A stretch of 64,000 bases of DNA. Origin: Ginglymostoma cirratum. Its lineage: Eukaryota. Below, piece after piece: positions 2,592 through 50,600 of the stretch (positions are counted from its first letter, which is position 1; every line of letters starts with the position of its first letter). The stretch spans positions 10,340,255-10,404,254 of the forward strand of contig JAHRHZ010000058.1 in the NCBI GenBank assembly GCA_024137785.1. Direction: 5' to 3'. The position numbers were made by a program, and so were the translations under genes. Under the pieces are notes generated by a model. The model worked only from the letters and a program-made list of their open reading frames with translations. It did not search any database and had not been told where the DNA came from.

Positions 2592-3013
2592 GCAGACGTT
2601 TCATTACACTGCTCGGTAACATCATCGGTGCAGCCTCTGATAAAGCGTTGTTTTGTTTTCCCGCTTGGTTTTTAAACTCTGGAGTCCATTGAGCCGGGTT
2701 ACCTCACTTTCGGTTTTCCCTCGCAATGGAGTGTATATGGGGTCGAGCTCTATGTATTTGTTGGTAGGTTTCTTAGAAGAGAACCAAGCTTCTAAGAATT
2801 CCCGTGTTTGTCTCTGCTTCGCCTGTCCCAGGATGCTGGTGTTGTCCCAGTCAAACCGGTGGTGAAGCAGAGACAAGCATGGGAATTCCTAGAGGCCTGG
2901 TTCTCCACGAAGAAAGCCATCAACAAACATATAGAGCTAGACCCCATATACACTCCATTGCGAAGGAAAACTGGAAGTGATGTAATTTCCAGCTCAACGG
3001 ACTCCAGAGTTTA
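2592..3013. mobile_element. Penelope-like element 3' end (GIY-YIG C-terminus plus pLTR with hammerhead motif) in inverted arrangement
   Basis: The minus ORF HRFDWDNTSILGQAKQRQTREFLEAWF...IELDPIY and the plus ORF EFLEAWF...IELDPIY form inverted arms 2673-2820 / 2864-3013. HHR-like motif on the minus strand at 2592-2631. Confidence 0.85.
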
Positions 3014-4149
3014 TGTCTTGGCTAGCATCAGACGCAAGATACTTCTGCCCAGAAGGGAATTCATTTGGAACAATTAGGAAATAGCTTCTCTCAGGGTAAC
3101 AGTTTTAGTTTGAAAATTCCAGACCTGAAGGGTTATTTGAAACTAAGTTCATTTTTAAAGCTCAGCTGCATCAGTAATCAAAGAAATGGCCAATCAGGAA
3201 TTGAAAGAAAGTGTTAAGTTAAACTTATAGATGTCACAGAAAGGCAACTTTCTCACTGGTATGAGTACTGTAAAGTCTTGATGTTGGAATTTTGATTTGC
3301 CATGTTTCAAGTTGTTATATAAACACCTTGGATTATCATTTATTTTATGTACTAAACTTGTTTCATTGTTAAAACCAAATATATAGTATCTTGTATCGTG
3401 TGTAAAAACTACTAAATTTATTAAAAAATGATCTATCAGCCTGGTATCAGATGACTAGTTGGAACAGCGGCTCTAGGATCTAAGAATTTACAGTGCGAGG
3501 TGAGACATAGATCTAATGATGTTCCCACATATCTGCTCACCCTTGTTCTTCTAGGTGGTGGAGTTTGTATGTTTGTGAGGAGCCAAAATAAGATTTTGGT
3601 GTCGTGTAGAGTAAACATGGCACTGAATGTCAATTAAAGGTGATTAGGCTCTTCCGTTCAAAATGATCAATGCTTAACATGGACTAAGACTGGAACAAGT
3701 TCTGGAGATAAGTAGTTCTTGCAAACCCAAACCAAGCATCAATGAGGTAATTACATTTATGTATTCAAAAACTTGTTGACAACTTATTTTGACCATTTTA
3801 CTGCCAATTGAGAGTAGGCTTATAAGGGTGGATTTCTCTTTTGTTTTTGTGTGTGGTTACGAGATATCTAGGCAATTTTCCACAATGCAAGGTCTATGCT
3901 AATACTGTATTCTGTATATACTGTATAACTACAGTCAGTCAATTTCACGTAGGTACATCCACAATGCAATTCAGGATGAAGCTGCAGGCTTTTGACCCAG
4001 TCACACTGAAAGAACACCGATATATTTCAGAATCAGGTTGGTGAGTACTTTGGAAGGGAACTTACAAGCAGTGATGTTCCCAAATGTGTCTAACGTATGT
4101 CCATCTATATGGTGGTCCTCATGGCTTTGAAATGTTCCATGCAAGGAAC

Positions 4150-4525
4150 GCAAAAATGTAAACCAGGAGTAGGCAACTCAGCCCCTCAAGTCTGCTCTGC
4201 CATTTAATGTAATCACATTCAATCTCATCTCAGGCTCGACTCCACTTTCCTGCCTTGCCCCCATAACCCTTTAACCCATTACTGATTAAAAATGTCTCTT
4301 AAATTTATTCAGTACTTTTGGCATTCACTGCACTTGGAGGTAGTGAATTCAACATTCACAAACTTTTTGAAAAATAGTTCCTCCTGTTTGAAAACTGCAG
4401 GCCAGTAGCCTAAAACTATGACTCTCATTCTAAGTTGCCCCCCAAGGGGCAACATCCACCGAACATCTACTTTGTCAATTCCCTTTAGCATGTTATATAT
4501 CTCAAATCAATCTTCTCTCAGCCTT
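4150..4525 (-). mobile_element. CR1 LINE 3' fragment
   Basis: ORF MLKGIDKVDV..MLPL; CR1-type 3' UTR. Confidence 0.75.
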
Positions 4526-5320
4526 AAAGAATCCTTGATGAACTTCTGCAATATGTCTTGCTTCTAACGTACATGTGGAAACAGTGAATGTGTAATCAAG
4601 TCGCACTCAATTTATTATTACAAAGAATATGGTTCTTGGCAAATTTGACTTTGTCTACCAACCACAATGGATTGAAGATGAAAATAAGATTCCTGCTTAT
4701 GATGTTTATTCCCTGTTGTGGTGTTTCAAGCAACACTCAACAGACAGTTGAAGGCCATAGAAGGCAAAGGCTTTATTCTACCAGTGTGCATATGAGAATG
4801 CAGTTAAAAAGGTTCAGTTCAACAAACAAAGGTTTCTCCACCTCTTACATACTTCAGTTATGGTCGTTACTCTGGCACACAATTTGTCACATAGACATCA
4901 ATCAATCAAGCTCTTGCAGTGCCCAGTAACCATGTTCCTTGAAAATGCAAACAGATTCCCATTTGCAGCTATTATCACTCGATCACATCAACTCATTTAT
5001 AATTTCCATGCACAATCATGCTCATGTCTCTTTGTGTAGCTAAATGGTTCACGTCTCCTCTTGGGTCTGTACAGTCCTAAATTAAGCTTACATTCTATGT
5101 TTCGTTTCAACTCTTACAAACCTCAGCCAGTTGGCATCCTACACTAACGTTGCAGCCTGGTATACACCAAAAATCCTTCTATACATCTGTCAAGTGTCTA
5201 ATTAATTTGAATTTATGGGCATTCACACTCCCTTCCACAAAATGCTAATCAACACCATTTATCAATGTCGCCAGAAAACAAAGTGATTCAACAAAACATT
5301 TGTAACTCATTACATAAAAA

Positions 5321-5545
5321 TTTATTTCTTTTCCTTAATGTAATAAAACCAAGCTTCATGACATTTATTTTCAGATTAGAAATAGTAGAAAATCTTTCAT
5401 CATGATATGACACACATAGGAGAGATGTATGTGGAACTGAACCAAACTTAACCAACACAGACAAACAATATACAAGGAATATAATTTGGACGAGTTTTAA
5501 GATTTTGTTTCTGCACGCATATTTACATGAACATGAACATTTATT
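5321..5545 (-). promoter_or_regulatory. Candidate ASPM polyadenylation signals (AATAAA at 5540-5545, 5364-5369, 5321-5326)
   Basis: Three minus-strand hexamers downstream of the stop; the distal one is followed by U/GU-rich sequence (TTTTTATGT...ATGTTTTGTTG). Confidence 0.55.
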
Positions 5546-5556
5546 GAAAAATTAAA

Positions 5557-5680: not shown

Positions 5681-8600
5681 CTGCAACATAATCAAGAAAA
5701 AAGTTTAGCATAAGCGTTATTTAAAACAAAAAGCAGGAAGAGACAAGGGATAAATGGAAAAGATGAGCACAAAAGAATGACAACATAATTACAAAGTAAG
5801 AAAATGGGTTCTTACTTAGAAACTAAACTTGTTCGAATAGGAGTAGCTGGAATATATGAAATGCCATTGCAAGGGGTAGACATCCGCAGTTTAACATTTA
5901 TTCTGTCTATATCCATCTTGTGTTTTCTCACGGTAAGCTCATAAATGCTAAGGATACGATCCACTGCCCTAGGCAAGCTTCGAATCTCCTGAAAACAGAA
6001 ACTACCGTTAGTGCATCAGTTTTATCCAAAGGCCCATTTGTATTCCCTGTTTAAGTGGGAAAGAGGAAAAATCAACAAGAAATGAACCAAGTAATGCAAA
6101 ATACTGCAGATGCTGTAAATCTGACACAGAGATCTGAAGAGGAGTCACGGCAGACTCAGTGCTAACTCTGTTTCTCTCTTCACGGTTGCTGCCAGACCTG
6201 CTAAATTTCTCCAGCATTCTGTGTTTGTATAAGAAATTAACCATAACACAATTATTTATTTTCTGCAAAGGCATTTTGCCTCAGCAAAATGGAATTTGGC
6301 CACTAGAATGCTACTCTATTTGGACAAAATAAAGCACAACCTCAGAACAAATATTCATCTATTAAATGTGAATCAAACAGCAGAATCGGCAATTGCCACA
6401 TTTTATTCAAACTTGCATTTAACTTTGCTCATAACAACGAAATCCTTTAGAATATACACTTGCAGATATATTTGCTCACCATTGCTCTCTTCGAATCCTT
6501 TGAGAGAAGGGCCAGTAAACAGCAAACCTTTGTAAAAATGCTGCTACACTTGTTTGATGTCTTGTCACCGGCTTTTGCTCTATACGTTTGCAGCAAGTCG
6601 AGTAACGTATTAATGGAATTGTCTACTTCGTACACAACGGTAGATGTTTTGTGATACTGGAGGACATTAAAATCAAAATGCAATTTTATTCATTCATACC
6701 TAAAACTAAGCTAAATCTTTACGCTGATAACAAAGAAAATCTAAAAATGAACAGATACTGCAATAAAGTAAGGAACTTTATAATCATAAATATCCCACAT
6801 GGTTTTTAATCACCATTCTGGTATTTTATGTTGATCAAACAGGAAGAGAAATCTGCCACTTTATTGAAAGGTGGGGGGGGAACAAGAAAAAAATTGTGCT
6901 GATGCAGTGAGTAATTCCTCTTCATCATCATGACCACACTGAAATCACACAGCTGACTAGAATCCTGCATATTAGTCCTGTAGAATGCGTGAACAGTTAG
7001 TCTTTACAATGTTAAATTAACAAACTAGAAACATTCAGAATAAGCCTGTCTTTTCCAATGCAGTTGTTTTAAAGACATAATACTGTAGATTATAGAGTTC
7101 ATGGTTGTTATCTTTTCCCTGGGATGGGGGATTTCAAGTTTAGGGAGCACATTCTTAAGGTGGGAGGAGAGAGATTTAAAAAAGACACGAGGGGCAAATA
7201 TTTTTACACAGAGGTGGTTTGCATTTGGAATGAACTTCCTGAGGAAGTGGTAGATATGGGTACAATTACAACATTTAAAATACATTTGGATAAGTACATG
7301 AATAGGAAACGTTTGGAGGGATATGGGCCAGGAGCAGGCAGGTGGGACTAGTTTAGTTTCGGAGTATGTTCGGCATGGACCAGTTGGGCGAAAGGTGTGT
7401 TTTCATGCTTTATGACTCTGTGACTTTTTCTATCTGTAATTGGACCTTCCTGCAGTCAAAGATGAGACTGAAAAGAAATGATCGACTAGAAAGAGCTCAT
7501 ATGTGAAACACTGCAGGTTAACCCCTTAAAGGGCAAATGATGATAGTTCAAAATCAGCTTTCAAGGTCAGAAATCAAAGGCGTTAGAAGTACCATATAAG
7601 AGGGATCTCATGAAAAGTAAAGCAGATTGAATAAGTCACCACCATGTGAAGCTGCTTTACCTTGTTTCAGGTATAAGAAGAGGGCATAACCTGCACAAAA
7701 AGTCAATGAATTAAAAAATAATGTAAGAAAATATTCTCAGTGAGCAAGTGAACCTGCTGTGGTTAAAATTGCGCAGAGAGAAGATGGAAACGATTAGAAT
7801 TAGTTGATATATAGACAGTCATCAGGTTGCAAAGGGATTCCATTCTGGAGTTCGTTCGTAAGTCAATTTGGATGAAAGTTGGAACAATGCAGGTCAATGA
7901 AAGGAGTCATTAGTAAGTATGGAAAATGTTTATATATGTCGGATCTTTAAAATTACACCCCTGTACAAGATCACGTTCATGAGTATGAGCATTTGAGAGT
8001 CATACCTTCAAAAATTAGGAACCCTATATAAATGCAAAGATGGATTTTTTTCAAGCAATATTTTGGGTTACAATACGAGTAATGTGACATGATATAGGTG
8101 GTAAACTTGGAGTAGCAGGTGACTTGAAACATTGGACTGATTTTCAGGTAAGCAGCAGAATTATGGGTCAGGTTACTTCTCAACATTGCATTTTCACCTT
8201 CTAATTCACCCTGCATGATTACCATATTTTCAACATGCAGCACTGCAGCAGCCCTGTCAGGAAAGATGCCCAAGAATAGAATAGAATTCCAATTTGGGCA
8301 ATTTAGGAGACTAGTACTTCAGCTGAATTCTGTACATAAATATTATGCACTCTAGACCTCACCCCCCACGCTTACTCCTTACTCCCATTGCTTTGCCCCA
8401 ATGTCCATTATGGATGCAAGTCATGAGCCCTACAATAATTTTGGGAAGTTCTTGAGATCATCATGAAGCTAATAAAAATAAACAAATAGCCATTCTAAAC
8501 CTCTCCAAAAAAATTAATTCTGAACCCAAAACTATCAAAACCAAGCTCACAATCCATTTGTGACTTTGTCAGCAACAGCTGCTGAACAAAATACAAGTTG

Positions 8601-11600
8601 GTTTGGAACTCAGCCAAATGTTCACTGCAGAATTGCAAAGCACAACTTTGTCGGCAAAGCCTCTGAAACTGAATCACTACAATTCTTTTGAACTAGTAGG
8701 ACAAATGAACATATGCCCCACCGTTTCAAATGGCTAAGCAAATAGCTCAACTTTGAATCAGTGTAAAGACTAACGCAACGTCCAAATGACATCTCTGTAC
8801 TGTTGAAGGAAGAAAAGTATTTTAATCTACTGAATAATGTTCTCTAAACAATCTGAGCACCTTCACAACACTGGTCAATTTAATTTGATTTAAGAGCACA
8901 AATCCCCATAAATCACTGCATTCAAAATATGCTTAAATCGTACAACATCTAATTGTAACATATCAAGTTGGCAACACCTTTCAAAATTGTATGTCAATAG
9001 GTTGCTAATTCAAAACCAGGCTTTCTCCAAGGTTCTTGATGGACAATCTGATGTATTGCATGCAGGCACGAGGAACTCATCCATCTAGCTAAAGATATTA
9101 AACTATGGGACATTTTAAATTGAGGTAGGCATTTAAAAGGCTAAGCATAATGTGCATATCAGCTCTCATTATTCCCTGCATCAGTCAAAACGGCAGTTGG
9201 CATGAGGTTGTTGGGGAATTTAATCTTGAAATTCCCCAACCTTCATTCTTGGTCACTCAGCATAGATTTGTTCAATGTAAAGAAGGCAAAATCTGACTAA
9301 TTTTCCCAAAGGCTTCCATCATTCAAGCTTGCCTGAAGTAAGGGCCAGGTATAGACTTTTTGATAGAAATTAATAACTATGCTAAATGAAAACCTTCATT
9401 ACTATATCATGCAACTACCAATATGGTAGGCAATTTGACTAGATAATGGTCTTTTTACATCTAGCAATACTGCTACTAGTAAATAGTCTTAAATTAATTA
9501 ACCTTTTAACAAAACCACAGTGCACACTGAGAAAACGTTTGTTGAAAACGTTATGAGATTTGTAGCTAAATCACTTTGAGAAAAACTCTTAAAGAATGTA
9601 TTCATTCACAGGATTATGAGCGTCACTGGCTAGGCCAGCATTTATTACACATCCATAATTGGCCAGAGGGCAGTTAAGAGTCAACCACATTGCTGTGGGT
9701 CAGTTCTGAGGAAGGGTCACTGGACCCGAAACATTAACTTTGATTTTAATTCACAGATGCTGTTGAGCTTTTCCAGCAACTTCTGTCTTTGTTGCTGTGG
9801 ATCTGGTTCAGGTCAGGCCGGTTAAGGACAGTGGCTTTTCCTAAAATGAAATTAGTGAACCAGATGGGTTTTTCCCAACAATTGAGAATGGCTTCATGGT
9901 CACCACAAAACTGTTAATTTGAGATTCTTATTGAATTCAGATTCCACTATATGGCTTGGCAGGATTCCAACCTAGGACCCAAACATTACTGGATCTCTGG
10001 ATTAATAGTCTAGCGATAATACCACTAGGCCTTCGCCTCCCCTCAACGCTTGCAAACAGGGGACTAGCTACAGTTAACCGATGTCCAAGTACACGGGACA
10101 GTCAAAAACATATTTGGATGGAAGAGTTATAACGATTATAACTTTTAGCAAGGCACCAATGCAGTTGTATCCTTACAAATTCAACAGACTTAATTCTTTA
10201 TATCTACTTCAAAACAGGAGGACTTTCTTAAACCAACCAACCAGATGTATCTTTAAAAAATCCTTTTAAAGAACAGAATTTATTTTTAATATTTAATATT
10301 TAATTATTTTAATGTCATTTAATACAGATAGTACCTTCGAAAGATTGAGGAGAACTTGTACTGCATACTTAATGACATCCATAGAAGGCACACTGCGGTT
10401 ACAACTCCTGATCAAAGTCAAAATAATAGGTGTCGCTCCACTTCGGGCAAGATTTTCACAGCAAGTGGAAGATAATCTGGTTGCAGCCTCTAAAAATAAA
10501 TGGTTAATGTTAAAATTATGAGATCCTCTGTGATTGGGATTAGCAGATAATTCATGAAATTAGCCATTATGACCAATACCCACTTCAAGCCTAGTTTTAG
10601 ACATGAACAAAACTCAGCTTTTCAGAGAATACATGAGAAAACACTCTCCTTCCAATTTGCTCATAAAACCCCTCCTAAGCATCCTCAACCGTCACCCCAA
10701 ACAAGTGCTAGATATCAGAGACTTCTCTATCTTTCTGTTTCATAGATGGGTTAGCTCTGTGAGTTCAATGGTTATCTCACACCGTTTTCTGCTTAAGTGA
10801 CATAAAATGTATAGAAAGATCAAACTGTTAAGTTGCATTTGCAGTTGGGATTATACAGGGGATGCCAGCTTCAGCAGCATCAAAAAATTTAAACAGTTAG
10901 TGTACGATGACTTCACATAACTCAGTTAATAGGAGAGACAAATCTAATTGTTTCTCATCTAATTTTACTATATTGCACAAATGAAAAAAGTGAAAATATA
11001 CAAACCTAAATGTTTCAAAGCTGCAAGAATGTGAGAGAAATGTTTGTATTTAAGAATGTAATCGAGTGCTACAGCTGTTCTGTTGGACAATTTCTGCTCC
11101 TCAGTGCTGTTCTGATTAGCCTGTTCAATGTGGCGTCTGATAGTAATTATTTGAAGATTGTTGGTTTTCTTGCGCAAGCAATATCCTCTCCACAAAGCCT
11201 ACAGAATTAGAAAATTGTTTTGATATTTTCTTTGACAAATAAGTACAATAAACTTAAAGTCTATGAAGATCAAATTGAAGTATTTATAAAAAGTATGCAT
11301 ACAACTGTGAAACAGCAGATAACCACTGGACAACTGATTTTCAATCAAAATAAAACAAATTAAAGTTTTAAAGTACATGGTATTTTGTAAACTCCAAAAA
11401 TAACCAGAAAACTAAATTGTACAAAATGTACTTTTTCTTTCTCATTAGTTGCTGAAATAAAGCAAATACTTTAACTCAAATCAACTGCAAACCACAACAA
11501 AAGATTTAGTACCTGAATTTTGATAATTGCACTGTGAAATCTTTGCTTCCGGGTTTTTTGAAGAAAATGTCTTGCAACTTTCTGAATTACAACAGCAGCT

Positions 11601-14600
11601 TTGTGACGTCGCATGAGCCAGATCTTCACAGTTCGCTGAACTACAATAATCTTATGATAATCATCAAGATATTTTCTGCGTTGAAGACAAGTTCTGAACC
11701 ATCTCTATAATGAAGTGTACATGTATTACTGTACATTAACAAATAACTTATTCAAACCAGCAAAAGCATCAAGGAGACATTCAACATCCACTCAACCAGA
11801 AATGGATTTGGGAAAAGCTGGAGAAATAGCAAAATAAATTTTGGATTAAATACTTCAAGCAGATTGGATGAACAAGTAGTCATTCAAGGTAATTTTGGCA
11901 ACAGCAATTCAACTTGGCAGTACCAGCATATTTGAGATTATATGACAAAATGAGCAGAATCATGACGATTGTGGATTCAAGTCTCAATCTATGATTTAAG
12001 GTCAAAAATCAAGGCTGACATTTTGGAATGCTGCATTATTGGAAGTGCTATCTTCAAGAGGAGAGGCTAAAGCAAAGCTTCTGACTTGCCTATTCAAATA
12101 ACACAAAAGATCCAACATCCTGGTCAACACTATGCTCCAACACAACCACCAAAATGGACTTTCTACTTGTTTCTCATTCAGTTTCTGTTTTGGAATTTTA
12201 TATACTGTGGGCCACTACATAGACAACGACAGTGAATGCATCCTCACCATTTGCCTTCCCACCTGCGCTTTGGCAGGATGAACAAGGGAGCAACATTTAA
12301 ACAGCATCTGGACAAGCACTTAAAATGCCAGTGCATAGCAGGTATGGACCAAGTGCAGGTAAATGGGATTAGTATAGTTTGGTGTCTGTTGGTCAGCATA
12401 ACCATGGTGGTGGGCCAAAGGGTCTATATCTACACTGTATGACTGAATTCATCTGATGTTACATGAATGTCATTTCTTCAGAAGATTAGGTATTCTCAAG
12501 CAATTGTAAAAATTTAGAAAAAGTTAAAAGACTTGTAAAGGCTCAAGTAATCATAAAACACAATGGGATTAATTTGTTTTGTTAAAATGCATAGACACTA
12601 TAAATGTGTTTGATCTATGTAGTGACCAGAATAGTTCTTCATTGTCAACAAGTGTAAACTTCCAGCTTTTTAAGAATTGCTGTTTTAAAATGATCACCTG
12701 GATTGAACTTCACTGTTTTCTTTTTTTTACCTGAATAAAGATGACAGAATTGATTTCATTTCTTGCACATTTAAGAGCCCTGTATCTTTTGTACGTTCTT
12801 TGAATCTTAAAAGCACAAAGGTGGTGATAGACAGCAGCAGCGAAACAAAGCTTCTTTTCTGCCAATTTTTGTTCAACAAGCTGTAAAGTGAGGAGGAAAA
12901 ATAAATACAGAAGCAAAGGAGGCATTTATGGCATTCTAGCTACTAGGGAAAAGTCAAAATTTTAAAATCCGAATAGATAATTTACACCTTTCACACAGCC
13001 TTCTGGAACAAAATGTACATTCAACTTAAATATGTATCTTGAAACCAAACACATTTTTCCACTTCCTAATTTAAGCCCCTTATACTGACAAATGAAAACT
13101 ATCCCCAACGATCCTATAGCACGAAGGGCAGTAGTGATTTTCACAGCTACTCTCTTCATCCCCTGTGCCCTGAATGCAAGCAACTGGGGCTGTATCTTTT
13201 GTTTTTGGGTTTTAGACATTTTGAATATTTTGTTTAAGACAGTGATGTAGCCGTGTAACATAATTTCTCCCTTCATTCAGCTGACACTAGGTCAGAGAGT
13301 TTTAGCTCAGATTTACCTTTTATTTAGAGTCTTTTTTTAAAAGAAGTTTATTCATGGGATTTAGACATGATTGGCTGGGCCGGAATTTATTGTCTATCGC
13401 TGGTTGTCCTCGAGAAAGTGACTGTGGGTGCTTTCTTGAACTGTTGCAGATACATGCTATGGTAGACACACAACGTCATTTGGGAGGGCGTTCCAGGTTT
13501 TTGACACAGAAACACTGAAAGCATGGTGATATACTTCCAAGTCAGGATAGCAAGTGGCTTGGAGAGAACTTCCAGGTGGTGCTGTTCCCATGCAGCTGTC
13601 CTTGTCCTTCTAAATAGCAGTGAGAGTGGGTTTGGAAGATGCTGTCAGAAGAGCCTTGGTGAATTTCTTTCACCCCATTTACCAAATCCAGCCTTTAACA
13701 AAAGCTTAATAAGCCCCAACTGAAAATTAGAGCAAAATTGAACCGATAACACATTTTAGGATGATCACCTTGCACAGATTTCCTCGACAAACTAAGTTAG
13801 TTATCCACTTCTCCCTACGTGATAACAATTTATATTGAACAATGTATTTCATCAATTTTGAAAAAAACTAGCATGAATTTGGTAGAGGTAAATTGTGCTT
13901 AATGAACTTGACGGAACATTTAGATGAGAAATAGAGTTTTTGTGTTAATTATAGACTTCCCAAAGGTATTTGATGAAGAGACATGTAATAGACTTGCTGG
14001 CAAAATGCCTGGAATAAAAATTGGTTATGGCAGCATGAATACAGAGTGATACAGAATACAGAATAGTCGAGTGATAAGGAATACAGAACATTTATGAAAA
14101 GTTGTTTTTTTGGGTTGAAGGGTAATATTGTCATGTCCAGTAAGGCATGACAGTTTTAAACTTGTATTTTTTAAATGGACACGCCTTTTAATATGGCAAA
14201 TACCAAAACCAATACTTAATTAAAATATGTACAAACACAGCTACATGTGAAATTCACAAGTCCTTTTAAGAATGAACCATCAAACATGACAATATACTAG
14301 GAACAAAAACAGAAGTTGCTGGAAAAGCTCAGCAAGTCTGGCAGCATCTGTGAAGAGAAAATCAGAGTTAATGTTTCAGGTCCGGTGACTCTGCCTCAGA
14401 ACTTTTTATGACAACACACCAACTGCTCAATCTTCCTGCTTCACTGTGGACAACAGAGATGTTGAGACTCAGTGGGTGTTAGGCAAATGTAAAAATGATT
14501 CTGATCAAACTTCCACTGTTTTGTGATGACTTCTCATCTGAAATTCAAAGACTTTGCTGTCTCAAACACCTGGTATGAAGAGCCACAATTCAGGAAGTAT

Positions 14601-20600: not shown

Positions 20601-23600
20601 AAATTGAATGCAGCTGTCAACTTGACGGTCAGGGGGATTGAGTGGCCACCCACCCATTCAGATTGCAAGTTCTGCTCCAGCTCTGTGACAATGTCCTAAA
20701 CAATGTTCCCGCTAGCTTGTTTTCCTGCTGCACGATCCTCCAAGATCCCCGCATGGCAAATAATTTGAAGATAGGAGTCAATGTCCAAAGCATTGTTGGA
20801 TCACTGCACGTGGAACTTCTAGTGGCTGCGTGGCTTAGAGAGAACTTGGTTCCTGGATAGTGTTCCAGTTAATTTTCTTTCCTGCTGCGCAGACCTCCAA
20901 GATTCATGTAGGCTTCCTGCAGTTATAGCTGCGATCAACGTGCTGACGCCAATCGGCACCTTAGGTGTGCAGCTCAGAGGGAGCATTGTTCATGTGACAT
21001 CCTTAGCTTGTGACAGCAATGCACCTCACTCATTCAGAGGAAATGGCATCATGGATGACAGACTGAGCCTCCTGTACCACCTCCACACCTTGAGGGTATC
21101 TCCAGCTGCAACCTCTTTCGCATGGAAATTGTCCAGCTCGTGGTCTTGGGTTTGCTAGCCCCTTTGTCCTTCCTCAATTTCCCAGAGCTTTTTTTGCACC
21201 ATGGGAACAGCAACAATAACCCCTGCTGTGGCTGGATCCATTGGTCACAGTTCCAATGAAACCTATAGGGAATGTCAGATACAGACAGGTCCCTACGAAT
21301 GTGAGCATTCGCAGCACACACAAATGAAAGTTTAGCATAGTCCTCAATACAGTGCAACATAAAGGATTCGGTCAAGGAGGGCCACGGAATGCATATACAT
21401 GTACCTGTTATTTGGTTGACCTTATTCTAATCTATGCACCATAACCCATGTTTTGCAAACAATGAATGAGATTAGAATTAGTGAAACCCTGTTTCCCAAC
21501 CCCATCCATCACACCACCTGAGAAAAGCAGCATTGTTCAAGGTGAGAGAAAATCATCTCAACACCTTTGTGTAGCCAATGAAGCCTTGGATTGTTTTTGC
21601 AAGTTGTGGCCCACAAGACAAGAAGTCACCTATGATCACTTCTACTTCACACAGATGACCATGATCAATTTGCAATGACCAACAACGCGTTAAAGATTGC
21701 ATGTGGTCAATATGTGTACTTGATATAGTTGGTCACTGCATGAGTTTTGTTTGTAGAATTTTATGACCACAGATATTTTAAACCCACATGTACAAGTGCC
21801 TGATCGCAACAATGACCTCAATAAGGGCAAACACCCTCTCATGCCTCACAAGTAGAGCCTGCACCCTCAACAAATATACTGCCCACTTGCAAGCATGGCA
21901 GGAGCCCTTTTGCATTTGCATTGCGATTCAGATGAAAATGGAAAACAACACAGCTGGTGCTTTGTACAGCAAGTCACAGGCTCGGCCTTTCAACCCAAGT
22001 GACAGCCACTAACATTCAAGTTCTTCCTTTTTCCCTTGCACTCCTTGTTGACCCATCAGTTCTGATCTTCCACATGCTCAACTCTTTTATTTAAGTCTCC
22101 ATCTGCCAACATCCCCAATCCATGGGCCTACAGTTTAGTAATGCGATTGTGATGTACTGGGTGCACCAGGGTGGCAGTGGCTGTCAAATACTGCTAGTCC
22201 AAGAGTAAATTATGTCTTCTAATGCACGATTGTCTCCCACCATGGTACAGAGTTGTCCAGTATCATGATTACTGTCCCACCTGTATCCCAGCCTGCTGCT
22301 TCCATTCTTCACAACTGGCTTTCCAAGTTGTCCATGGTAGCAGTGGACTCTATAATCTGCTTTGATTTTAATCGAACAGACTCCCAGGACTGACAAGGAC
22401 CTAACCCCTGACTGACTTGGAGGAAAACTCCCAACTGACCTCTTTACAGCTTCACAACTGGCTGACTGTAATATACAGACTGATGCTCAGAATCTGCAGA
22501 ATTGAACATGGCCCACTCCCTAGACTGCAAAAACAAGGAACCCTGATACTGATTGTCCAAACACAGTTCACGGCTTAAGTCAGTCACTTGCACATTGATA
22601 CAATCAGGTAAGGACAAAAATCACATGACACCAGATTATAGTCCAACAATTTGAAAACACAAGCTTTTGGAGCCTGAGGAAGGAGCTGAGCTCCGGAAGC
22701 TTGCATTTTCAAATAAACCTGTTGGACTATAACCTGGTGTTGTGTGATTTTTGACCTTGTCTACTCAAATCCAACATCAGCGCCTCCACACCTTGCTTGA
22801 CTGTGGCAGGGTTCCTCTGTGATAACAGACCCCTTTGACTTGACTACATCCATTAGACTAGCTATATAGTTGAAGCATATGCAATGTGTTTGCTGCGTAA
22901 ACTAATGGCATATGCTGTAGGCATGACTTTCACGTAGCACAATGCTGTACAGCAACACATCCACTATCTTGACTGATCACTTCTGGCAACCGTGACAAGC
23001 TGTCCAGTTGTGTTTGCACCAAAAAGTGAGGCAAGACAGAAATACTGTCGGACTGTGAAGCAGGAATGCTCAAAAAGGCAAGTCATGGGCAGAGATACAG
23101 TATGCATCCAAGTGAGAATTAAGGGAGCAAGCAAGGAGCCCTGACATATGCCCTATTCTGATGAATGAAATGGTGCCTGTCCCTACGTGCAAAAGTGGCC
23201 TACCAGGTGCACAGCACTGAAAGGTGTAGGTGCACTCCAAAATGAAGTATTCTAAGTGAATCACAGATGTGCCATGATAATGGGAAGGCTGGTGCATTCC
23301 GATGTCAATCTCCATGACCAAAGGATGCAGGTGGATGCTGCCCACGTAGTATGCCCTGAGGTTTCAGATCAGACTTATATGTTTAGAATTGCCACAATCT
23401 AGTTTCTCTCCAGTGAAATAGCAAACTGCATATATATGAGATAATTCATGCATTTTATATAGGCCTCTCACCACTCACTAACAACATTTTCATCTCGCCA
23501 TTAAAACTTGGGTGGAAAATTAGACTTATTTTAGCGCCATCAAGAATCTCATTCTTTCTAATCATGCTATGTTTTCCCAATGGACTTGCCATTGTTGAAA

Positions 23601-26600
23601 CCTCTGTTTTTGTTTCAGAAACTAGGTCAAAATTATTCGAGTCCACTTCTTCCTCAAACCTTGTCAAAATGTCTAAAAAATAAAGATTACTTTAATCCTA
23701 GCAATTTAGTTAGGATTTGAATCCTGATCCCGGAACTAAAATGAAAACAGAAGTTTAGAGTTTCCATTCTCAGCACAATTCGCTCGAAATTAGCCAAAGC
23801 ACCACCATAACAGAATTTTAAATTCAATTCACAGCCAGCATAACTGAAGTGTCTGCAAACTTTAACATGGTTTAATCATCATACTGGAAGCTGGGAACCC
23901 ACCCATAAAACTGGACTCATCTTAGTTCAAAGGATTAGGCATGGAAAAAATGTGCAGAATATTCTAGAAAAACTCAAAAGGTCTGGCAACATCTATTGAG
24001 AGTTCTGAAGAAGAGTCATGCTGGACTCAGAAACATTAACTGTTTCTCTGGGCACTGGTGCTGCCAAACCTGCTGAGTTACTACAGCATTTTATGCATTT
24101 GTTTCAGATTTCCAGCATCCAAAGTATTTTGCTTTTAATAAGCATGGAGAGTTTTCTCAGAATGAAGAGCTGCCTTGAACAGGTATAAACGATTGTAGGT
24201 GCTTAGTGACACAAAGTTATACTTGAAATATTTAAAAAATGATTTGTTTTACAAGGAACAGACTGAGCATGAAAGATACTACTAAATAATACCATATAAT
24301 GGGTTGACATTAATTTTAATTATTTAATAGTGGGTACTCAGGTGGTACATTAGAAACACACTGTAAATGCTTACTTTTGCAATAAACTCATTTTTAACCC
24401 AAATGAATAAAGCTGCACAGGTTAACACTCTCAAGTACAATATAGTAACGTCTTTTAATGTAACAGGAGGCAGGGGTGGTGAAGGAAATCAATTACCTTT
24501 ATAATGCTGCCAGGTTGCATTGGTTCAAGGAAATGTTGGATTCAGTGATGGAAACTGTGTTTGAGCTGACATCTGAATCTTGGAAAATTCACACAATTTG
24601 TTCCTGGGTTGCACAGAGGACCCAAAGTGAAGTTTCTAACCCAGTATGTTTATGCTGATTCCTCAAAAGCAAAGCAAGCCAAAGAAAACTAAGAAAATGC
24701 AGTCTACCTTTATCAGCTGATTTCTGGTTCTAAATCCTTTCCAAAATGCCTGGATTTTGATTGCTGCCATTGTTTTTCTCATGTTTTCATCCTGCAATCT
24801 TCTTGTTGCAACAGTTAGTCTCCATTTTTGTTGAATAACAATTGAGGCAGCCCGGATCTTTAAGAACCTAGTTGTGAAATACAAGGAAATGCAATCAATT
24901 CAAACCATTTTGAAAAAAAGGGACAATTTAAATCAGGATTAAAAAAAAAGCAGTCAACTCCTGTACTTTGTTTACCACAGGTGCCTAGAAAATGACACTG
25001 ATAAATTCTCAGATAGCAAACCAGGCAGCAAAAATAACAGATAATCATTCATTTTTAGACCATTTCACAGGGAGCATGGAATGGAGGCTGAAACAGCAAA
25101 CGTTTTATAAAAAGTAAAACATGGAACAACGGTGTGACTATGATGTGACATTGAATGTGTACATCACAGAAAGTTGTGCAATGTCGTGTGATCTTTCTTG
25201 CAGCTTTGAGGCACGCTGAAGCCATGATAAGGTATTCGTAAGTAAGATGTTTTCTTTACCTCAGCAGATTATCTAAAATATTCTTTGGCAGTGTAATAGA
25301 TGAAGAATTCTAGAACTACACAAAAAGCAGTGACATGGGATTTAACATTTTAAATGTTTTCATAATGAGAATGGTATGTAATAAGTTTCAGTTCACGACG
25401 GAGGTCTGATTTCTGTGTTAATTGCATCTAGAACAACAGCATTCCTAATGAAAGAGCAGGGCATTTGGGCCAACAAATTCCAGATTTAAAAGTTCATGTG
25501 CTAACTGATATGACTGCTAAGCTGTGCAGTTACAAATCAACCTAAAAGCTACCACACAGGTTAATAACGTGCACAAGTGGCCAGACAAGAAAATTTAATG
25601 GGATTTTATAACAAGAAAAATAAACATGACTGTGCAGCATAACGAAAGTTCACAAGGTAACATTTGTGATCACGTCAGAAGTTGCTATCAGTTTCACAGG
25701 GCAACATTGGTAAAAGCTAACTTCTGTTTTCTCTAGAACTACAAAACACGGTGTAATTTTTTAAAAAATTATTTCCCATAAAATGTTACCTAGATCTTTC
25801 TTGTTTTGTTCTCAATTGCTGTTGGATGAATAGAACAGAGTCAAGTATAGACTTGTACCGCCGACGTTCAACTTGAGCCTTGAACCATGCCTGGATTTTT
25901 TGTGCAGCTCTTGTTTTTCTGGCTAGCTGCCTTGCTTTGTATCCACGGAATGTGTTCTGAAACAAATTAAAATATGGAGTAAAATCTTTATTGACAATGG
26001 ATGTCGAAGTTGGTCAGAAAGAACAGTAAACAGTTAAGTACAATTATGCATTTCAAGTAAAAAAAAAGCACACCGAGGTCATAATATTTATGCAAACAAC
26101 GCCTCTAAAGTGAATCATGTATGCCTGACCAGGATGCCTTGAATAAAAATGTGAAGGAACACAAAAAAAAAAATGAAATGCTGAAAGGAGCATCAACTTT
26201 GAAAGGTGAAGAGAAAACACAGCACAAAGAACATATCAAAAATTGGATCAACTGATCTAGTTGAAAAAAAGCTAACTTCAATAAACCACTTGTTATTGCT
26301 GAAGGAAAGTGCAATACTACAAAGCGAGAAGTGGTGCTTCAGTTTAAATCGGAGTTTAATAACAATGTCTAGAAATTGTGCATGTATTTGATGGAATTGC
26401 ATAATAAGGACTGATATCCGGGTTCAAAAAAAGGAAACAAAACAAGAGATATTGAGTGACAAAAGGTGTGAAGAGCAGAATGTTGATGCTTACAAAAGCC
26501 CAAAACTTGGTTAAATTATAAAGCGAAACTGAGAACTGACTGCATCACACTTCGGTTCGATGAGATGAGCAGTCATTGCCAAGGTGACCAAATCCATCAG

Positions 26601-35600: not shown

Positions 35601-38600
35601 GAACTTGCAGATGGTATCGCCAGACAAATCCTGCTCTTGTCCTTATGGCTGAAAGGAACCAGTTGGAGGAATTGTAAAGATTTGTACAGCTCAAATGAGT
35701 GACCACACTCAATTACTGCTTCTGACTAGACTTGAAGATAAATTCTGAGAGCTTACTACTGTAAAAGAAAATCATAAACATCTACAAAAGGTACCATCTA
35801 AAACAAGTGGAATACAAGAAGTAGCATTTAGGCCTTAAATTGTCCTCGAAATGTAACAAAGAACATAGAACATAGAACAATACAGCGCAGAACAGGCCCT
35901 TCGGCCCTCGATGTTGCGCCGACCTGTGAACTAATCTAAGCCCATCCCCCTACACTATCCCATCATCATCCATATGCTTATCCAAGGACTGTTTAAATGC
36001 CCCTAATGTGGATGAGTTAACTACATTGGCAGGCAGGGCATTCCACGCCCTTACCACTCTCTGAGTAAAGAACCTGCCTCTGACATCTGTCTTAAATCTA
36101 TCACCCCTCAATTTGCAGCTATGCCCCCTCGTACTAGCCAACATCATCATCCTAGGAAAAAGACTCTCACTGTCCACCCTATCTAATCCTCTGATCATTT
36201 TGTACGTCTCTATTAAATCCCCTCTTAGCCTTCTTCTCTCCAATGAGAACAGACCCAAGTCCCTCAGCCTTTCCTCATAAGACCTTCGCTCCAGACCAGG
36301 CAACATCCTGGTAAATCTCCTCTGCACTTTTTCCAATGCTTTACATCCTTCCTGTAATGGGGCGACCAGAACTGTACGCAATATTCCAAGAGAGGCCGCA
36401 CTAGCGTTTTGTACATATCAGTCTAACCTGAAGAAGTGTTGCCGCTTCATTCTGGACTGCTTGCATCTTTGTCATCATCATTGTTTGAGCTTTCTTCCTT
36501 GCCACATGACCACGCCAATGCTTTTGTATAACAAGAGCAGCATTTGTTTCCTTCTTAACGTGCTGTCGACAGAGGAACTTACGCACAGCTGCTTGAATGA
36601 CACAGGCAGCTTGAACTTTTTCCTAAAACACAGTACAATTTTTAAATTAGAAGAACAAATCTACAATTTAGGTTGTGCTTGCCATGGTCTCAGGATCTTC
36701 AAAAAGGAGAGGAATGCCAATCTTCTTGCAAAATGCATTAATTTATATACGTTAATCTAAATTGACATGAGCGAAGAAGTACGGAGTCAGTAGAGTAGCA
36801 GTTAAATAATTTACACCTTTGTACCACATCATACCTGAACATATTGGGTATTCCATTAAGCCCCAATAATGAATTGCAGCAATGTTCTGCTGAATATGGA
36901 ATTACAAAATATCTCTATGTAAGGGGATGCAAGGCAAAGACATCTCTACAGATAAAGACAGAGGATGATACAATGCCTAATCAGCAACAACCAATAAATC
37001 AGAATTTAACTCATCACTGTTGCAAAGTTAAAATGGTATTGAACTAATTAAAACTAAGACTGGAACCATGGCAATGGGATAACTGGAATGGATTGCGGAC
37101 AAAATGCATTTTTGTGCATAAGTCATCAGTCATCTGCAAACATGCATTCTTACTTCATTGTAATTTCTTGATGATATGCATGAAATGTAATAAACGAAAG
37201 AAAAAAGTGTACAATTGAGAGTTATGTAGGCATGAGTATTCTGATGCTTGCAGTAATGAGATAACAGTAAAATAATCAATCGAAAAATCATACAATTTAT
37301 TTAACCATTTGCTTTTTTCTCTCCAATGGCAATAAAGTGAAATATTAAGGCAAAAAACAGCTATTCAAGTCATTGCCATATTACCATGCTTGCATAAAAC
37401 ACTATTGAACATTACTGGAAGAAGAATTCAAATCTTATTAAACAATGTTGTCTGACCATACATTTGAAATTGAGAATTTATTCTTTTACAATCTCCTTTC
37501 CTTTTCATTGGTTACAAATGTGGAACAATAAAGGTAATATTTAACAATGTAAATTTTATTAAAGTTTAGCTTGTTTCAACATATATCATTGCATTACATT
37601 TATGCGCAAAGGTCAGATGCACTGCAAATATACATGTACATTAGTTTTATTGGGACCCTGTAAGGGACAACGTAGGTGACAATAAATATTCTAGAAGATG
37701 ATCACACTACCTGTAAAAGCTGAAGCTCACGATTTAACTTGTACTTCCTCCAAGCAGCCTGTATGATCCTGGCAGCTCTTGTTTCATTTCGAAGATCCAA
37801 TAGACGAGCGCAAAGAAATGAAACATATGCAATGACAACCTGTAAAATAATTTTTAAAAACCATGGAAAATCAATTGTGACAAAGTGACAAAAAAATTAT
37901 TCAGTGAGGGTCCATGGTGGAATATCATTTGGAATATTTAGTTAAAATAGCACTGAACATACTGGCCATGAGCAGCAATGATAGACTAAACCGCAAACAT
38001 AACTTATTAAAACAGCAGTCATATAAGTCTTCAGATGTTGTTGGGTGCAGAATTAAAAAATTAGGTACAAAAACAGAAATTGCTGGAAAAGCTCAGCAGT
38101 TCTGGCAGCATCTGTGGAGAGAAATTAGAGTTAACATTTCGGTTTGAGTGACTCTTCCTCAGAACTCGACCTGAAACGTTAACTCTGATTTTTCTCCACA
38201 AATGCAGCCAGACTTGCTGAGGTTTTTCAGCAATTTCTGTTTTTGTTTCTGATCTACAGCACGTACAATTTTTTCATTTTTTATAAAATTAGGTAGTATA
38301 CTATTTAATGTTATCGCCTCAAGGCAAGGATATTAAATTTTACCTTCTCATCTGGGATAGTATTTGACATATCTATCTGTCGGATCATTGCTGGAACACC
38401 TCCAAGTTTCGCAACAGCAGTAGTCACCAGATTAAAATTCTTCTTTTCATTCTCCAAAAGTTCTTCATAGAGTCTACTTGATGAAGAAGCTGAAAAGTGA
38501 AATTCATATGCTGTTTTGTAACTTATGATATGTAATACTAAAAGTAACAGATAGCTCAAGTACATACCTAATTTTTTACATAACTATAACAAAAGACAGC

Positions 38601-41600
38601 ATTTCACCTTAGTACCACAAGATAAAACCACAGAATTATACACAATAGAACAGAGACCGTTACTTCTCTGCTCGAACAATCCAAAAGTAATCCAGCTATC
38701 CTGCTGTCACTGCATATTTCTATCATCAAAATTGACCAACTTGTTTTTAAAAACATGTAATAATCTCTGTACCAAATAAATTCATTCTTCAGCAGGCATA
38801 CAAGTTCTTAGAATCTCACTATTTCAACTTGATGGCTCTTAAATCACTGATTCATTAACCAGTGAAAATAGACTTTCTTCATATCTCAGCAATGGTGGAA
38901 ACAGTGCAAATATCTAAAGTTTCCTATTCACGAGACTAATCAAGTAAAATGCGCATCACACAATTGCCAGATAAGGACTGTTTCCAGTAAGGAAAGCCAA
39001 TCACGTCTTTTTGATATTGAACAGCATTACAGAGCTGCCTAGTAACATCTGGGGAGCACAGCGCAAGGAATCAGAACCTGAACCAGAGACAACAAGGTGT
39101 GGAGCTGGATGAACACAGCAGGCCAAGCAGCAAAGCTTGATGTTTCGGGCCTAGACCCTTCATCAGAAATTTCATGTTCATCCAGCTCCACACCTTGTTA
39201 TCTTGGATTCTCCAGCATCTGCAGTACCTATTATCTCAGAATCTGAACCAGACCTGCCACATAAAAAAACTAATCAGAAAAGGAGTATTCTGTAGCCCAT
39301 AAAACAACTCCCAACATCCCAAAATCTAACAAGCCCCTTTTAGGTGGTGGATAAAGATGTACATGAATGTCCTCCACTTGCCAGCTGCTCTGACAACATT
39401 CAGAGATCGACACAATCTCAGAAAGAGTTGATACCCCACTTACCAGCTTAAACATTCACCCTCTCTATCACAGCAGATTTGCAGCAGTACATGTCATTTA
39501 CAAGACTGTATTATAGCAAGTTGCCAAGTCTTCTTTGATGTCACTTCACAAACCTGCAACTTCCCTGACCTAAAAAGAAGGCACATGGGGACACAACTAT
39601 TTGCAACCTCCCCTCCAAGTTCCACATTATCCACACAGGCAGCCAGATCTGACTGGCCTTTTACCTTCTGGCGAGTAAGATTTTCTTGGGCAGCAGTATG
39701 GCTTGGATGCCCTGGGTTAGTGGGAATCTTCCCAGTTGGTCAAAGCTCCAGTATTGACAAGTTCAGCATGACAACCCTTGTACACTGCACAGTAGCCCGT
39801 TTATGAAACCAATGGGGAATTGGAGATCTGCTTTGGAGGAGCAGGTCTTTGCTTTGGCCTAAGAAAGCACCAGCTGTCTGGGCCAATGCTTGCTAAGGAT
39901 AAGCTGGTGCAGGTTCTGAGCCCTGTCAGTTCTGCCCCTGTTCCCTTGGGCTCATTTGGTCCTAGTTTAGGGCCCAAGGGCATCAGGCTATAACTAATTT
40001 TGGTCTGAGTTTCTATTAGGACAGCTTGCAGCTTGGTATTAGTGGGTAGTGTTCCTTTTTAAATTAATTTTACATCAAGTAAAAGAACAAATGTTTTGTA
40101 GAATTCCAGATGAATGGGGGTAAATACATATTTCTAATAAAATGTGCACCTTCTAGAAATAGTAATTAACACGGGGGTGCAAACGTCAACGTAATCTTCA
40201 AAATACTGACCAGAATCATTGAGGTTTGTGGGGATGACATCAATAGAGCTTTCATCAGAATCACTGGTTGATGTATCAATTGCCACTGTACCACGATGTG
40301 CACATTCTACCGTCTGTAGGGTTCGCGAACAGATTTCATCTGCAGCAACAAGGCCAGGATGATAATGATGGACAAGGTAACATAAAACCCTGCCATCAGA
40401 AAAGGCTACTGTGAAGTTCTCAATCTGAAATAAGTAGTAGAATAATAACTCGATCAGTACAGTTTAATTGTTACTTCATATCTTTATTATGGCTTTCTTC
40501 AGAAACTACTTATAAATATTAGTTTCTCAACTAATGAACTGACCACACTTCAGAATAGTCTCTTAAAGACTCCAAATCTTTGAGAATTAGTGTCAGCATT
40601 AATCTCTCGTTTTTTAACTTAATAGAATCATACAAGGGTGCAACATTGGAGCAGACCATTTAGCCCATCAATCACATCAGCTTCTGAGCCATTCTCATAA
40701 TAGTGCCCACTGTCTTTTGAATTACTCTTCCTTCCAAGCTAATGACTGTAGCAATTTCAAAGCTATTGAGAGTCTGTACCCACACCTATCAAACAGTGAA
40801 CTCCAATACAAACCAGTCATTGTGTAAGCAAGTTTTTCATCAAGTTATGTTTTTTTTCTTAATCAATTACCTTAGATCTGTATCCTCAGATTACTAACTC
40901 ATATCCTGGGAAACATTTCCTCTTTATTGGCTCTATGCAAATCCTTCACGATTTAAAACACAGCTATCAAATCTCCTCTTTGCATTCCCTATTCCACAGA
41001 GCATTACAATGGGCAGCACGGTGACTCAGCAATTAGCACTGCTGTCTCACAGCATCAGGGACCTGGGTTTGATTCCAGCCTTGGGCAAGACTGTCTGTGT
41101 GGACTTTGCACGTTCTCCCCGCGTCGGTGTGAGTTTCCTTCAATGGTCCAAAGATGTGCCAATTAGGTGGATTGGCCATGCTAAGTTGCCCATAGTCTTC
41201 AAGGATGTATATTGTTAGGTAGGTTAGCCATGGGGAGTGCAGGGTTACAGGGATATGGCAGGGGAATCAGTCTGGATGGGATACTCTTCGGAGGGTCAGT
41301 GTGGACTCGATGGGTCAAATAGCCTGCATCCACACTCTTAGGATTCTATGATTCAGTGCACAAGCTGAGTTTCTCCAGTCTCCCAACTTAACTTCCAATA
41401 ATAATCCATTTTGCATGATGTCAGTAAAATTAACTTAGATAATTACAGGAGACAGAGTCGTTTGGTAGTTAAACACTTCAGTTTAATTAATGCTCTCTTT
41501 AAATTTAATATTGCAAAGAAATCTTCACTGTCATTAGGTACTTGTTTAACTTGATTGCAGCGGCAGTATCTTGAAGCATAATTTTTTCATCTTAGTTGAT

Positions 41601-47600: not shown

Positions 47601-50600
47601 ATTTTTTGCAGATTTTGGAACCGATCAAACCAACGCCTTGAAGAACGACCAGACACTGGGAAACTGTGCAGTATGCTCTGCCACTAAAGTGTATTTGGCT
47701 CTACACTGTAGACATAAGATAAAAATGATTAGAAATTCAACTGTTTGCAAATAAAGCTGAGGTTAAGTGAGCAAATGGTGGCAGAAGGTATATAATGCAG
47801 AAATATAGCAGTTATTAACCTTTTGAATTTGCTTAAGTAACAAAATGTTGAAATTCAAAACAATTTGGTTGACATTTTGTCAGGAACAAAGCTAATATGG
47901 AGGTACAGCAAATAATGAGGTACAAGCAAGGATGAAATAGCATGTTGATTTTCAATACAAGGGGCTGGAACACAAAATTAAGAAAGTACAGCTGGAACAT
48001 TGGATTTAGGTGAGATGACACTTGGGATGTTGTACACGGGTCTGGCCTCTGACTCCAAGGAAGGTTACAGGTTTCTTAAACAGGCTCTCAATAAGGTTCC
48101 TGGATTGACTCCTGAGTTCAGGAGGTTGTCTTTTAAGGTCAGATGGAGTAGTCTGAGCCAGTATTCTCTACAGTTAAATGAATAAGTAATCTCACTGAAA
48201 CATGCAAAGTTCTGAGAGCACTTGACAGGGAAGTTGTCAACGGGTTGTGTCCCTGGCTGGAATGTCTAAAACTAAGGGATATACAGTGCTAGGATCAGAG
48301 GTTTGTCACTTGCGACTGAGATTAATAGAAATTTCTTCACTCAGATGTTTGCAAATCTTAGGATCTCTTGTCCAATGAGGGAAGATGGGGAAGAAAGGTG
48401 TACGAGGAATTAAAAAGTAATTTGTTTCAAACTTATCAAAAACTTTCAAAATTGGTTCAAAAATCAAAAATATACAAGATAGAAACATATTGAGCAATAT
48501 TAGACAGAGGAGAAAAGTACTGGAGGAACATCAAAATGTCAAGTAACACTGAGACAAACAAAATATTTAAACCTTTGTCGGGTCAGTAATGCTATTTATA
48601 TAAATTAGTCTTACCACAAAGTTTATAACTTCTTAACACTTTAGGATACACATCAGATTTCAGAGAAAAGTCAGAAACACCATCATTCCATTGGATCACT
48701 AAAATATACTTACACCAAACGAATACCACATCGAAGATCGACAGCTATATTGGTGACAGCAAAATTAAATTCATGGAGAGGTGTCTGAAAATGGCTAACA
48801 GTCAACCCAAAGTAACCAAGATGACGAGAAATATCTCCTTCACCACTGAGAAAGTCTCTAGAGAAGGCAAGTAACAGATCTTTGCTTGTCTAAATAAGAA
48901 AGACAAGTTAAAATTAGAATGTTCAAAGTTTACTGGTAAATAAAATCATACTGTAATGCACATGGTCTATAATTTTTTGTACAGAATACACTACTTTGGA
49001 CCCAATACATTTTTCACAGAACTAAAAAATGTTTTTCAATAAAAGAAAGTACTAAAATCATATTGGGTTCCACAATCAGTTAGGAAATGACAAATACACA
49101 GTCATCCTCAAGACGATAGTCTTATTACGTCAAGTCAGGTGTGCCCCAAGTACATATCCTCAATTCCCCTCCAATGACTGTGTTACACATTACTACTCAA
49201 TGACAACATCTAAAAAACTGTGTGCCAGTGTTCACTTGAAAGCTGACAATGCCCAGTTTCTACCTGGACCTTGCACAACCTATCCACAATCTCTAAAGTG
49301 TCAGACTGTTTATCACATATCAGTGGTGCATGTGGATGAATAGAAATTTTCTTTAATTGAATATTGGGAATACAGAAGCCACTAGTGTCTGGTTGCTGCA
49401 ACAGAATCCAATCCCTAGTCAATGACACCTCTCTTGGCAACTGTCACAGGTTGATATAGAGTTCGCAAATTTGGCTTCATATTTCACCAAGATGAGCTTC
49501 CAACCTCATTTCTGTGCCACTAATAAAATTAATTGTTTCCAATTTTGTAATATCGCATCTGTGTCACCTCAGCTGCTACCGAAAGCCTCATTCATTCCAA
49601 TCTAACTGGATTGGACCAGTTACAGCAGTTGCAGAACAATGTTCTGTGGGGAAATGAACAACTAGTTGTTGTCCACCTTGATACCAGCAACTCAGGTATG
49701 ATGGATGATGAGATCCTGAGAGCTAGAATGTAAATTAGAAAGTAGGACATCAAAATCTAATTGCTGGATTATACCCAGTTCCATGTGTAAGAGTGCAGAC
49801 AAATAATAGAAGAGAATGGAACTATTGAACTTAACAGAATCATCGAATTTTACAGTACAGAAGTCAGTCATGCGACACCTGATTTATACCATACCCAACA
49901 TTTACTACAACTGTTCTACTACCACCAATGTTTTCTGCCCTTTACTGTTTCTTAACTCCACTTGAATTGATTTTACATCTGATACTTCAATCCAAGATCC
50001 ATTCTTATTAATGTATTGATCAATTCCTTATTAAAGTGCTATCCTACCTCATTTTTTCCCCTTTCTAAATGAGGAATCTCCTTAGATACTCAGTTCCCCA
50101 ATTTGGTCACCCTGTCTGTAATGACAATTACACTATACCCATTTACCTCAATTTGTTTCTTTGAAATATCAACCTTTTTGCTGATGCTACATGTATTCAA
50201 GTAAGTTGTATTTAATCAGAGATAGCAGGAACTGCAGATGCTGGAGAATCCGAGATAACAAGGTGCACAGCTGGATGAACACAGCAGGCCAAGCAGCATC
50301 AGAGGAGCAGGAAGGCTGATGTTTCGGGCAGAGACCCTTCTTCAGAAAATTCATGCTGTGTTCATCCAGCTCGGCACCTTGTTGTCTAAGTTGTATTTAA
50401 TAGTGGCTTTTTAACATTATCCTTTTTGAACCTATGTGATGTTTGTATTAGCTCCCATTTGTATTTAATTTTGTTTACTGCTTTTCTGCTTTCTATTTTG
50501 TTTCTTTCCCATTGGAGTTCCCTCATAGGTTTCCTTGTCCTGCCAATCGAGTTTAAATACCACCCAACAGCAATAGCCAATCTGATCCAAAAAAACATTA

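Follow-up and report, generated by a model that had tools for sequence, protein, structure and literature searches.

Decayed minimal hammerhead insertions of probable Penelope-like origin in a 64-kb stretch of the Ginglymostoma cirratum genome

Nine hammerhead-like motifs and the insertions that carry them

The DNA analyzed here is a 64,000-nt stretch of the Ginglymostoma cirratum assembly GCA_024137785.1 (contig JAHRHZ010000058.1, positions 10,340,255 to 10,404,254), referred to below as the window. It is 38% G+C and contains a minus-strand gene with a 1721-codon IQ-repeat exon (27923-33088) and further IQ and CH exons, which we take to be ASPM. Nine insertions with a hammerhead-ribozyme-like motif, whose descent from Penelope-like elements (PLEs) is highly probable, are dispersed through it (Table 1). 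An original prediction, made from the letters of the window, had placed such a motif at nine sites, and all nine were located on the predicted strand, five minus and four plus. Profile searches built from the nine copies found no tenth copy in the window. The copies form four sequence groups, A (five copies), B (two, related to A), C (one) and P (one), in line with the expectation of at least three families. The eight short elements measure 93-213 nt between their ends, close to the 90-220 bp proposed for them.

The minimal hammerheads of metazoan PLEs are of type I, with no real helix III, an extra base 9/10.1, a G10.1-C11.1 pair and a palindromic 15.2-16.2 pair (PMC4209133). The pattern given in the original prediction, CTGANGA-stem II-GAAA, matches no site in the window when taken literally because one additional base separates A9 from stem II in every copy. 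With this bulge allowed and at least four perfect pairs required, three of the nine sites match exactly (9706+, 39166-, 50345-), as compared to 0.23 ± 0.42 matches, with a maximum of 1, in 60 dinucleotide shuffles. A looser pattern with three pairs and one mismatch also matches three sites, which is not significant against 1.38 in the shuffles. The core letters had been described as constant, whereas six of the nine cores are damaged. The core and stem II are in register in three of the nine copies, no copy retains every hammerhead feature, and the features of the PLE minimal hammerhead are present at the family level. The palindromic 15.2-16.2 pair is lost through a CpG-type change in six copies, including all three exact cores, and is kept in loose read ends of group B. 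The Rfam search recommended with the prediction gave no hammerhead match on the window at E up to 10; its weak microRNA-type matches reflect hairpins.

Covariation, the other structural claim of the prediction, held up. In an alignment of the nine window copies with two metagenome loci described below (L001 and L012), stems I and II covary, with 77% of cells paired and two-sided change in eight of nine pairs. None of 500 shuffles reaches 77%, and slid controls give 15-47%; the structure was read from the same sequences, which favors it.

Table 1. Layout of the nine insertions in the window.
Site	Feature	Position	Strand	Structure
2592	group P direct arm	2565..2861	-	last ~60 ORF codons (2861-2676), followed by hammerhead with U4>C (core 2628-2599) and short 3' stretch; no target duplication detected
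2592	group P inverted arm	2861..3013	+	ORF fragment repeated head to head, hammerhead absent; 84% match to 2673-2823; tblastn match 2868-2978
6134	group A insert	6077..6243	+	13-bp duplication (1 mismatch); tail-only inverted arm 6090-6128; hammerhead from 6134 without GAAA; direct arm stops at short site
9702	group A insert	9690..9800	+	9-bp exact duplication; inverted arm and tail absent; intact core 9706-9731
14366	group A insert	14286..14414	-	weak 7-bp duplication; inverted arm and tail absent; A9>C
22674	group C hairpin insert	22606..22789	+	tailed direct arm from 22674, with A13>G; inverted arm stops at short site; no duplication detected
24001	group A insert	23936..24148	+	weak 10-bp duplication; inverted arm stops at short site; direct arm with tail; extra base preceding GAAA
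38128	group A hairpin insert	38053..38295	-	15-bp duplication (1 mismatch); tail on inverted arm (38164-38280), none on direct arm; broken stem II
39139	group B hairpin insert	39071..39252	-	17-bp duplication (1 mismatch); tail on inverted arm, none on direct arm; intact core 39166-39143
50318	group B insert	50202..50401	-	15-bp exact duplication; 33-nt inverted arm stops at short site; tailed direct arm; intact core 50345-50322

Target duplications were scored as direct repeats abutting the homology-defined ends, with 400 random pairs as the null. The prediction had counted six copies with direct repeats of 7-17 bp; five duplications are strong, two more (14366 and 24001) are weak, at 3.5% of the null, and none was found at 2592 and 22674. 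Seven of the nine sites carry an adjacent, inverted, 5'-truncated copy. On the reference sequences of the window, every arm of groups A-C terminates at either a short or a long point, the pair being 97-100 and 131-134 in group A, 92 and 125-129 in group B, and 85 and 116 in group C. Each of these two fixed 3' ends, 30-37 nt apart, is taken by one arm in all six two-armed copies of groups A-C, so that exactly one arm carries a 30-37-nt tail. Three of these copies have it on the direct arm and the other three on the inverted arm. Both one-armed copies stop at the short point, without the tail. Single-strand folds of the decayed copies show no consistent downstream structure; a stem closed by the tail is one idea for what this region might form.

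The junctions between the arms are less regular. Inverted arms begin at six different places, sequencing reads show many inversion joints, and the two group B copies differ in their inversion junction and carry the tail on opposite arms. The varied starts and many joints argue that the hairpin is not copied as a unit. Of the two possibilities raised originally, mini-elements or inverted remnants of pseudo-long terminal repeats (pLTRs), the remnants therefore fit better than hairpins that move as a unit, by both junctions and tails. Simple fold-back through stem I was rejected as a source of the arms because they start variously and three of them carry a tail that is absent from the direct arm. 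As a separate observation, the insert at 9702 splits another dispersed repeat (9658-9976), whose halves match 55934-56153.

Short length, inverted ends and target duplications would also be expected of miniature inverted-repeat transposable elements (MITEs) of DNA transposons in whose middle a hammerhead-like sequence had arisen by chance, which was the alternative named in the original prediction. The arms are, however, unequal and their junctions variable, two copies have no inverted arm, the duplications span 9-17 bp, and PLE coding sequence is present at 2592. We consider this origin extremely improbable.

Connection to Penelope-like elements

The direct connection to PLEs is at site 2592. 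Its arms encode a peptide that is 67% identical over 43 residues (E 1.6e-15) to the whale-shark protein P0006, which matches reverse transcriptase (RT; Pfam RVT_1, E 2.7e-4) and has a GIY-YIG-type motif that lacks the cysteine linker. The missing linker places P0006 in the Penelope/Poseidon clade by the criterion given in PMC8557442. The open reading frame (ORF) fragment at 2592 has 121 relatives among cluster representatives, including the long RT proteins P0072 and P0107. Another protein, P0010, which derives from a different copy, matches both the end of the 2592 ORF and a frame through the hammerhead, and the double-methionine frame within the 2592 hammerhead resembles the N-terminus of full-length P0072. 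Because the hammerhead follows a fragment that matches an RT and GIY-YIG protein, the 2592 element, as judged by its sequence, is a 5'-truncated Poseidon-type PLE with an inverted fragment.

The eight short inserts have no such coding sequence, and their connection is indirect. A scan of metagenomes with the group A and B core gave 40 matches in 38 loci, of which 35 belong to one family, one (L012) to a second family, and four are apparently unrelated; five of the loci supplied the queries. In 19 of the 40 matches, which include members of both families, the core lies 65-163 nt behind the end of an RT/GIY-YIG ORF on the same strand, and these ORFs encode an RT, a cysteine linker and GIY-YIG, the arrangement of Neptune-type elements. 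The metagenome families resemble the window copies over the hammerhead only. This limited likeness assigns the core to PLE ends and does not by itself identify the shark ORF that belongs to groups A-C. The sequences suggest that the hammerheads of these groups are closer to those of Neptune-type elements with the cysteine linker, unlike that of the Poseidon element PAc of the green anole. Pattern scans gave nothing in viral contigs or in prokaryote genomes, and tblastn of the Neptune-type metagenome proteins on the window gave none at E <0.1 among the matches listed. The metagenome loci L001-L037 (e.g., L013:475-836, L029 and L035) represent an abundant Neptune-type family with this core, in which some loci hold head-to-head copies and two 3'-end classes lie ~50 nt apart.

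Comparison with known elements points in the same direction. Endonuclease-containing (EN+) PLEs are recognizable by an inverted 5' copy next to the element and by a one-sided tail of 30-40 bp (PMC8557442, PMC3846280). The window copies share with complex EN+ PLE insertions the head-to-head arm, the one-ended tail, a short duplication and, at the 2592 junction, a palindrome; unlike the complex insertions described in the available text, the eight short inserts consist of the pLTR module alone, at 93-213 nt, with one start position. Thousands of dispersed single minimal hammerheads have been ascribed to truncated PLEs, with several families per genome (PMC4209133, Cervera and De la Pena 2014). 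These have the same type I motif, short helix I and extra base as the window copies, whereas the latter are decayed and share a 5' edge that the accessible part of PMC4209133 does not describe; two supplement files of that paper contain no shark term. Dispersed minimal hammerheads, inverted ends and tails are thus already published features of PLEs, and the shared 5' edge is the residue. We found no literature on these shark families or on the shared edge; Repbase and Dfam lay outside the comparison and may already hold the families.

The Penelope origin put forward in the original prediction is accordingly borne out at 2592 by coding sequence, and for the other eight a likely PLE origin is supported by their anatomy and by the same core behind RT/GIY-YIG ORFs elsewhere. 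The PLE coding sequence at one site, the tail on one arm and the damaged cores had been overlooked in that prediction.

The shared 5' edge and candidate routes of insertion

In all eight short copies, the direct arm begins 0-8 nt before core base C3 and borders there on either the inverted arm or the target duplication. The cleavage site is never the start of a direct arm. The 35-match metagenome family provides a control with the same core. None of its 19 resolved 5' ends lies within 10 nt of the core, and they spread over 18-589 nt; 16 remain after three apparent duplicates are removed, and in another 16 matches the view upstream is cut off, either where the contig ends or by the 600-nt span. 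Comparison of 8/8 with 0/16 gives a Fisher p of 1.4e-6, although the copies are not independent and assembly may favor longer ones. The 3' ends of the control family cluster near 57-69 and 107-115 nt. The shared 5' edge of the shark copies suggests run-off from a fixed RNA 5' end.

We therefore favor, with a probability of roughly 0.55 for the mechanism as a whole, a reading in which the inserts are mutated, target-duplicated copies of a PLE end module, made from an RNA that starts just before the ribozyme. The Penelope RT and GIY-YIG nuclease would write this hammerhead-bearing module into the target. The nuclease would nick the two target strands with an offset of 9-17 bp, and complementary DNA (cDNA) synthesis would be primed from each nick at one of two internal start sites, with uncleaved PLE RNA as the template. 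One cDNA would run off the RNA 5' end at the ribozyme edge, most simply if synthesis is initiated within the 5' pLTR on a full-length transcript; the second would stop early and join the first head to head, so that a hairpin would arise anew at each insertion. The ribozyme is probably a passenger, predicted from its sequence to be inactive in these copies.

Biochemical work on the Poseidon element PAc provides a close parallel. The anole PAc protein cuts and extends both target strands, two internal RT start sites define the tail, uncleaved RNA is the main template, and the hammerhead is dispensable for insertion in vitro (PMC11167929). The window copies share with PAc the two 3' ends that bound the tail and an uncleaved hammerhead in the inserted copy.

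The edge could instead reflect ordinary 5' truncation from the 3' pLTR, with RT stalling at a folded or dimerized hammerhead so that copies pile up there. PLE copies are mostly 5'-truncated (PMC8557442), 2592 is such a copy, and the sites were picked by their hammerhead, all of which would favor stalling. Profiles over the 3' parts nevertheless found no stand-alone copy without a hammerhead in the window, the enzyme, coming from the 3' side of stem I, would have to unwind that stem before it arrived at the edge, and the control family passes the same core freely. Stalling is thus improbable.

The edge and tails also bear on non-LTR (long terminal repeat) retrozymes, which spread via hammerhead-cleaved circular RNAs. 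According to a recent report (bioRxiv 10.64898/2026.07.22.740005), they originate from pLTRs and leave monomers behind, and one cartilaginous fish among those sampled has them. Like the window copies they are non-coding and pLTR-derived, with a type I hammerhead and dispersed monomers. They are, however, defined by tandem head-to-tail units, and a tandem array is present at none of the window sites; no copy starts at the cleavage site, and the ends obey the tail rule. That the inserts are retrozyme monomers is very improbable.

Sequencing reads provide information on abundance and mobility. In one polyA run, 72,413 of 12,895,792 reads (0.56%) fall on the inserts at 38053 and 39071 at a likeness of at least 80%. 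They are equal in both orientations, the strandedness of the library being unknown, and almost none fall on the flanks. This signal fits passive carriage in host transcripts. None of the runs listed as carrying the inserts is recorded as RNA, and 524 reads with shared primer-like ends in run X24 were set aside. In a related organism (organism B), summed contig depth is 7.9 and 8.9 million versus 14.9 on the flank; the excess of ~5 x 10^5 gives no copy number and agrees with one copy per 7 kb in order of magnitude only. To that extent, the reads support the very large genomic population that had been proposed. In organism B, one contig reaches as far as 39077, and sequence resumes at 39243 in a piece whose depth (14.9) is the same. 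Since the skipped 165 nt equal the duplication period, we infer an empty site and hence absence of the 39071-39252 insert from organism B. Both organisms have the group A insert at 38053.

High abundance would also be expected if the inserts were dedicated non-autonomous mini-PLEs, in which short master copies (hammerhead, stem-loop and tail) are transcribed as small RNAs and mobilized in trans by PLE proteins, as short interspersed elements (SINEs) are by long interspersed elements (LINEs). The 5' edge is common to all eight short copies, none of which contains upstream PLE sequence, and across 864 contigs of organism B the loose-end consensus decays into low-complexity sequence just upstream of stem I (agreement 0.54). 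Mobilization of cargo in trans by pLTRs alone is on record (PMC3846280). Yet no promoter or master copy was identified, the reads are equal in both orientations and have no discrete ends, and a full-length transcript would give the same products, which makes a separate master unneeded. We regard mini-PLEs as possible but rather unlikely.

Several observations weigh against the end-module reading. The inverted arm at 2592 lacks a 3' end and misfits the two-site rule. Neither RT nor GIY-YIG was found by Pfam in the 150 longest non-ASPM frames of 306, with only IQ and CH above the cut-off, in a search that is insensitive since it also missed the 2592 fragment. Searches of the window by tblastn with 175 proteins found no PLE ORF at the sites of groups A, B and C. 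A profile of the A/B translation matched four predicted host proteins that hold the repeat, none with an RT. The polyA reads pile up nowhere at starts or ends, although this is a weak test. The unclustered 5' ends of the control family, despite the same core, mean that run-off at this edge does not hold for PLEs in general. Finally, transcription of Drosophila Penelope starts upstream of an intron, and it is the end of this intron, not the transcript start, that falls at helix I (PMC4209133, PMC8557442), so that the edge may be something other than a transcription start.

An 8-nt leader ahead of the core is common to the two group B copies (39167-39174 and 50346-50353, minus strand). By analogy with Drosophila Penelope, where splicing gives such an exchange, this leader could be a swapped 5' strand. 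Its pairing with stem I extends for only 2-3 bp, which again speaks against the proposed origin of the edge.

Neighboring sequences and significance

Several further features stand out in the window. The IQ exon contains three internal copies spaced 657 nt apart with 84-88% identity over 300 nt, which suggests that IQ blocks were duplicated in frame fairly recently. At the window edge, an open frame of 251 codons (63246-63998, minus strand) has no Pfam match and is probably another host-gene exon. Fragments from the ORF end of a related retroelement at 35953-36417 (-), 42704-42850 (+) and 51215-51346 (-) match parts of P0069 and P0010, and look to us like CR1-type LINE 3' ends. Two 46-nt inverted arms (46952-46997 and 47484-47529), 85% complementary and 486 nt apart, possibly delimit a MITE-like element.

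The named homologues of the repeats come from sharks. Six predicted shark host proteins (P0001, P0003, P0004, P0005, P0176 and P0178; e.g., GLE1, EYA3-like and CUEDC2 isoforms) contain translated PLE ends, through exonization or annotation error. Such ends are therefore relevant to the annotation of predicted shark proteins. An expansion of PLEs in whale-shark introns has been reported (bioRxiv 10.1101/443036).

PLEs are the least understood class of retrotransposons. Many short copies with three measurable points, the 5' edge, the short end and the tail end, would test both two-strand priming and the start of the template. More speculatively, sharks may hold ~10^5 copies of a SINE-like, ~130-nt Penelope-driven retroposon composed of hammerhead, stem-loop and tail, with its 5' end fixed at the ribozyme edge and a one-tail rule that records coupled two-strand priming. 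We consider this proposal doubtful as it stands. If true, it would provide a genome-scale fossil record of Penelope transposition and point to a non-cleaving role of the ribozyme.

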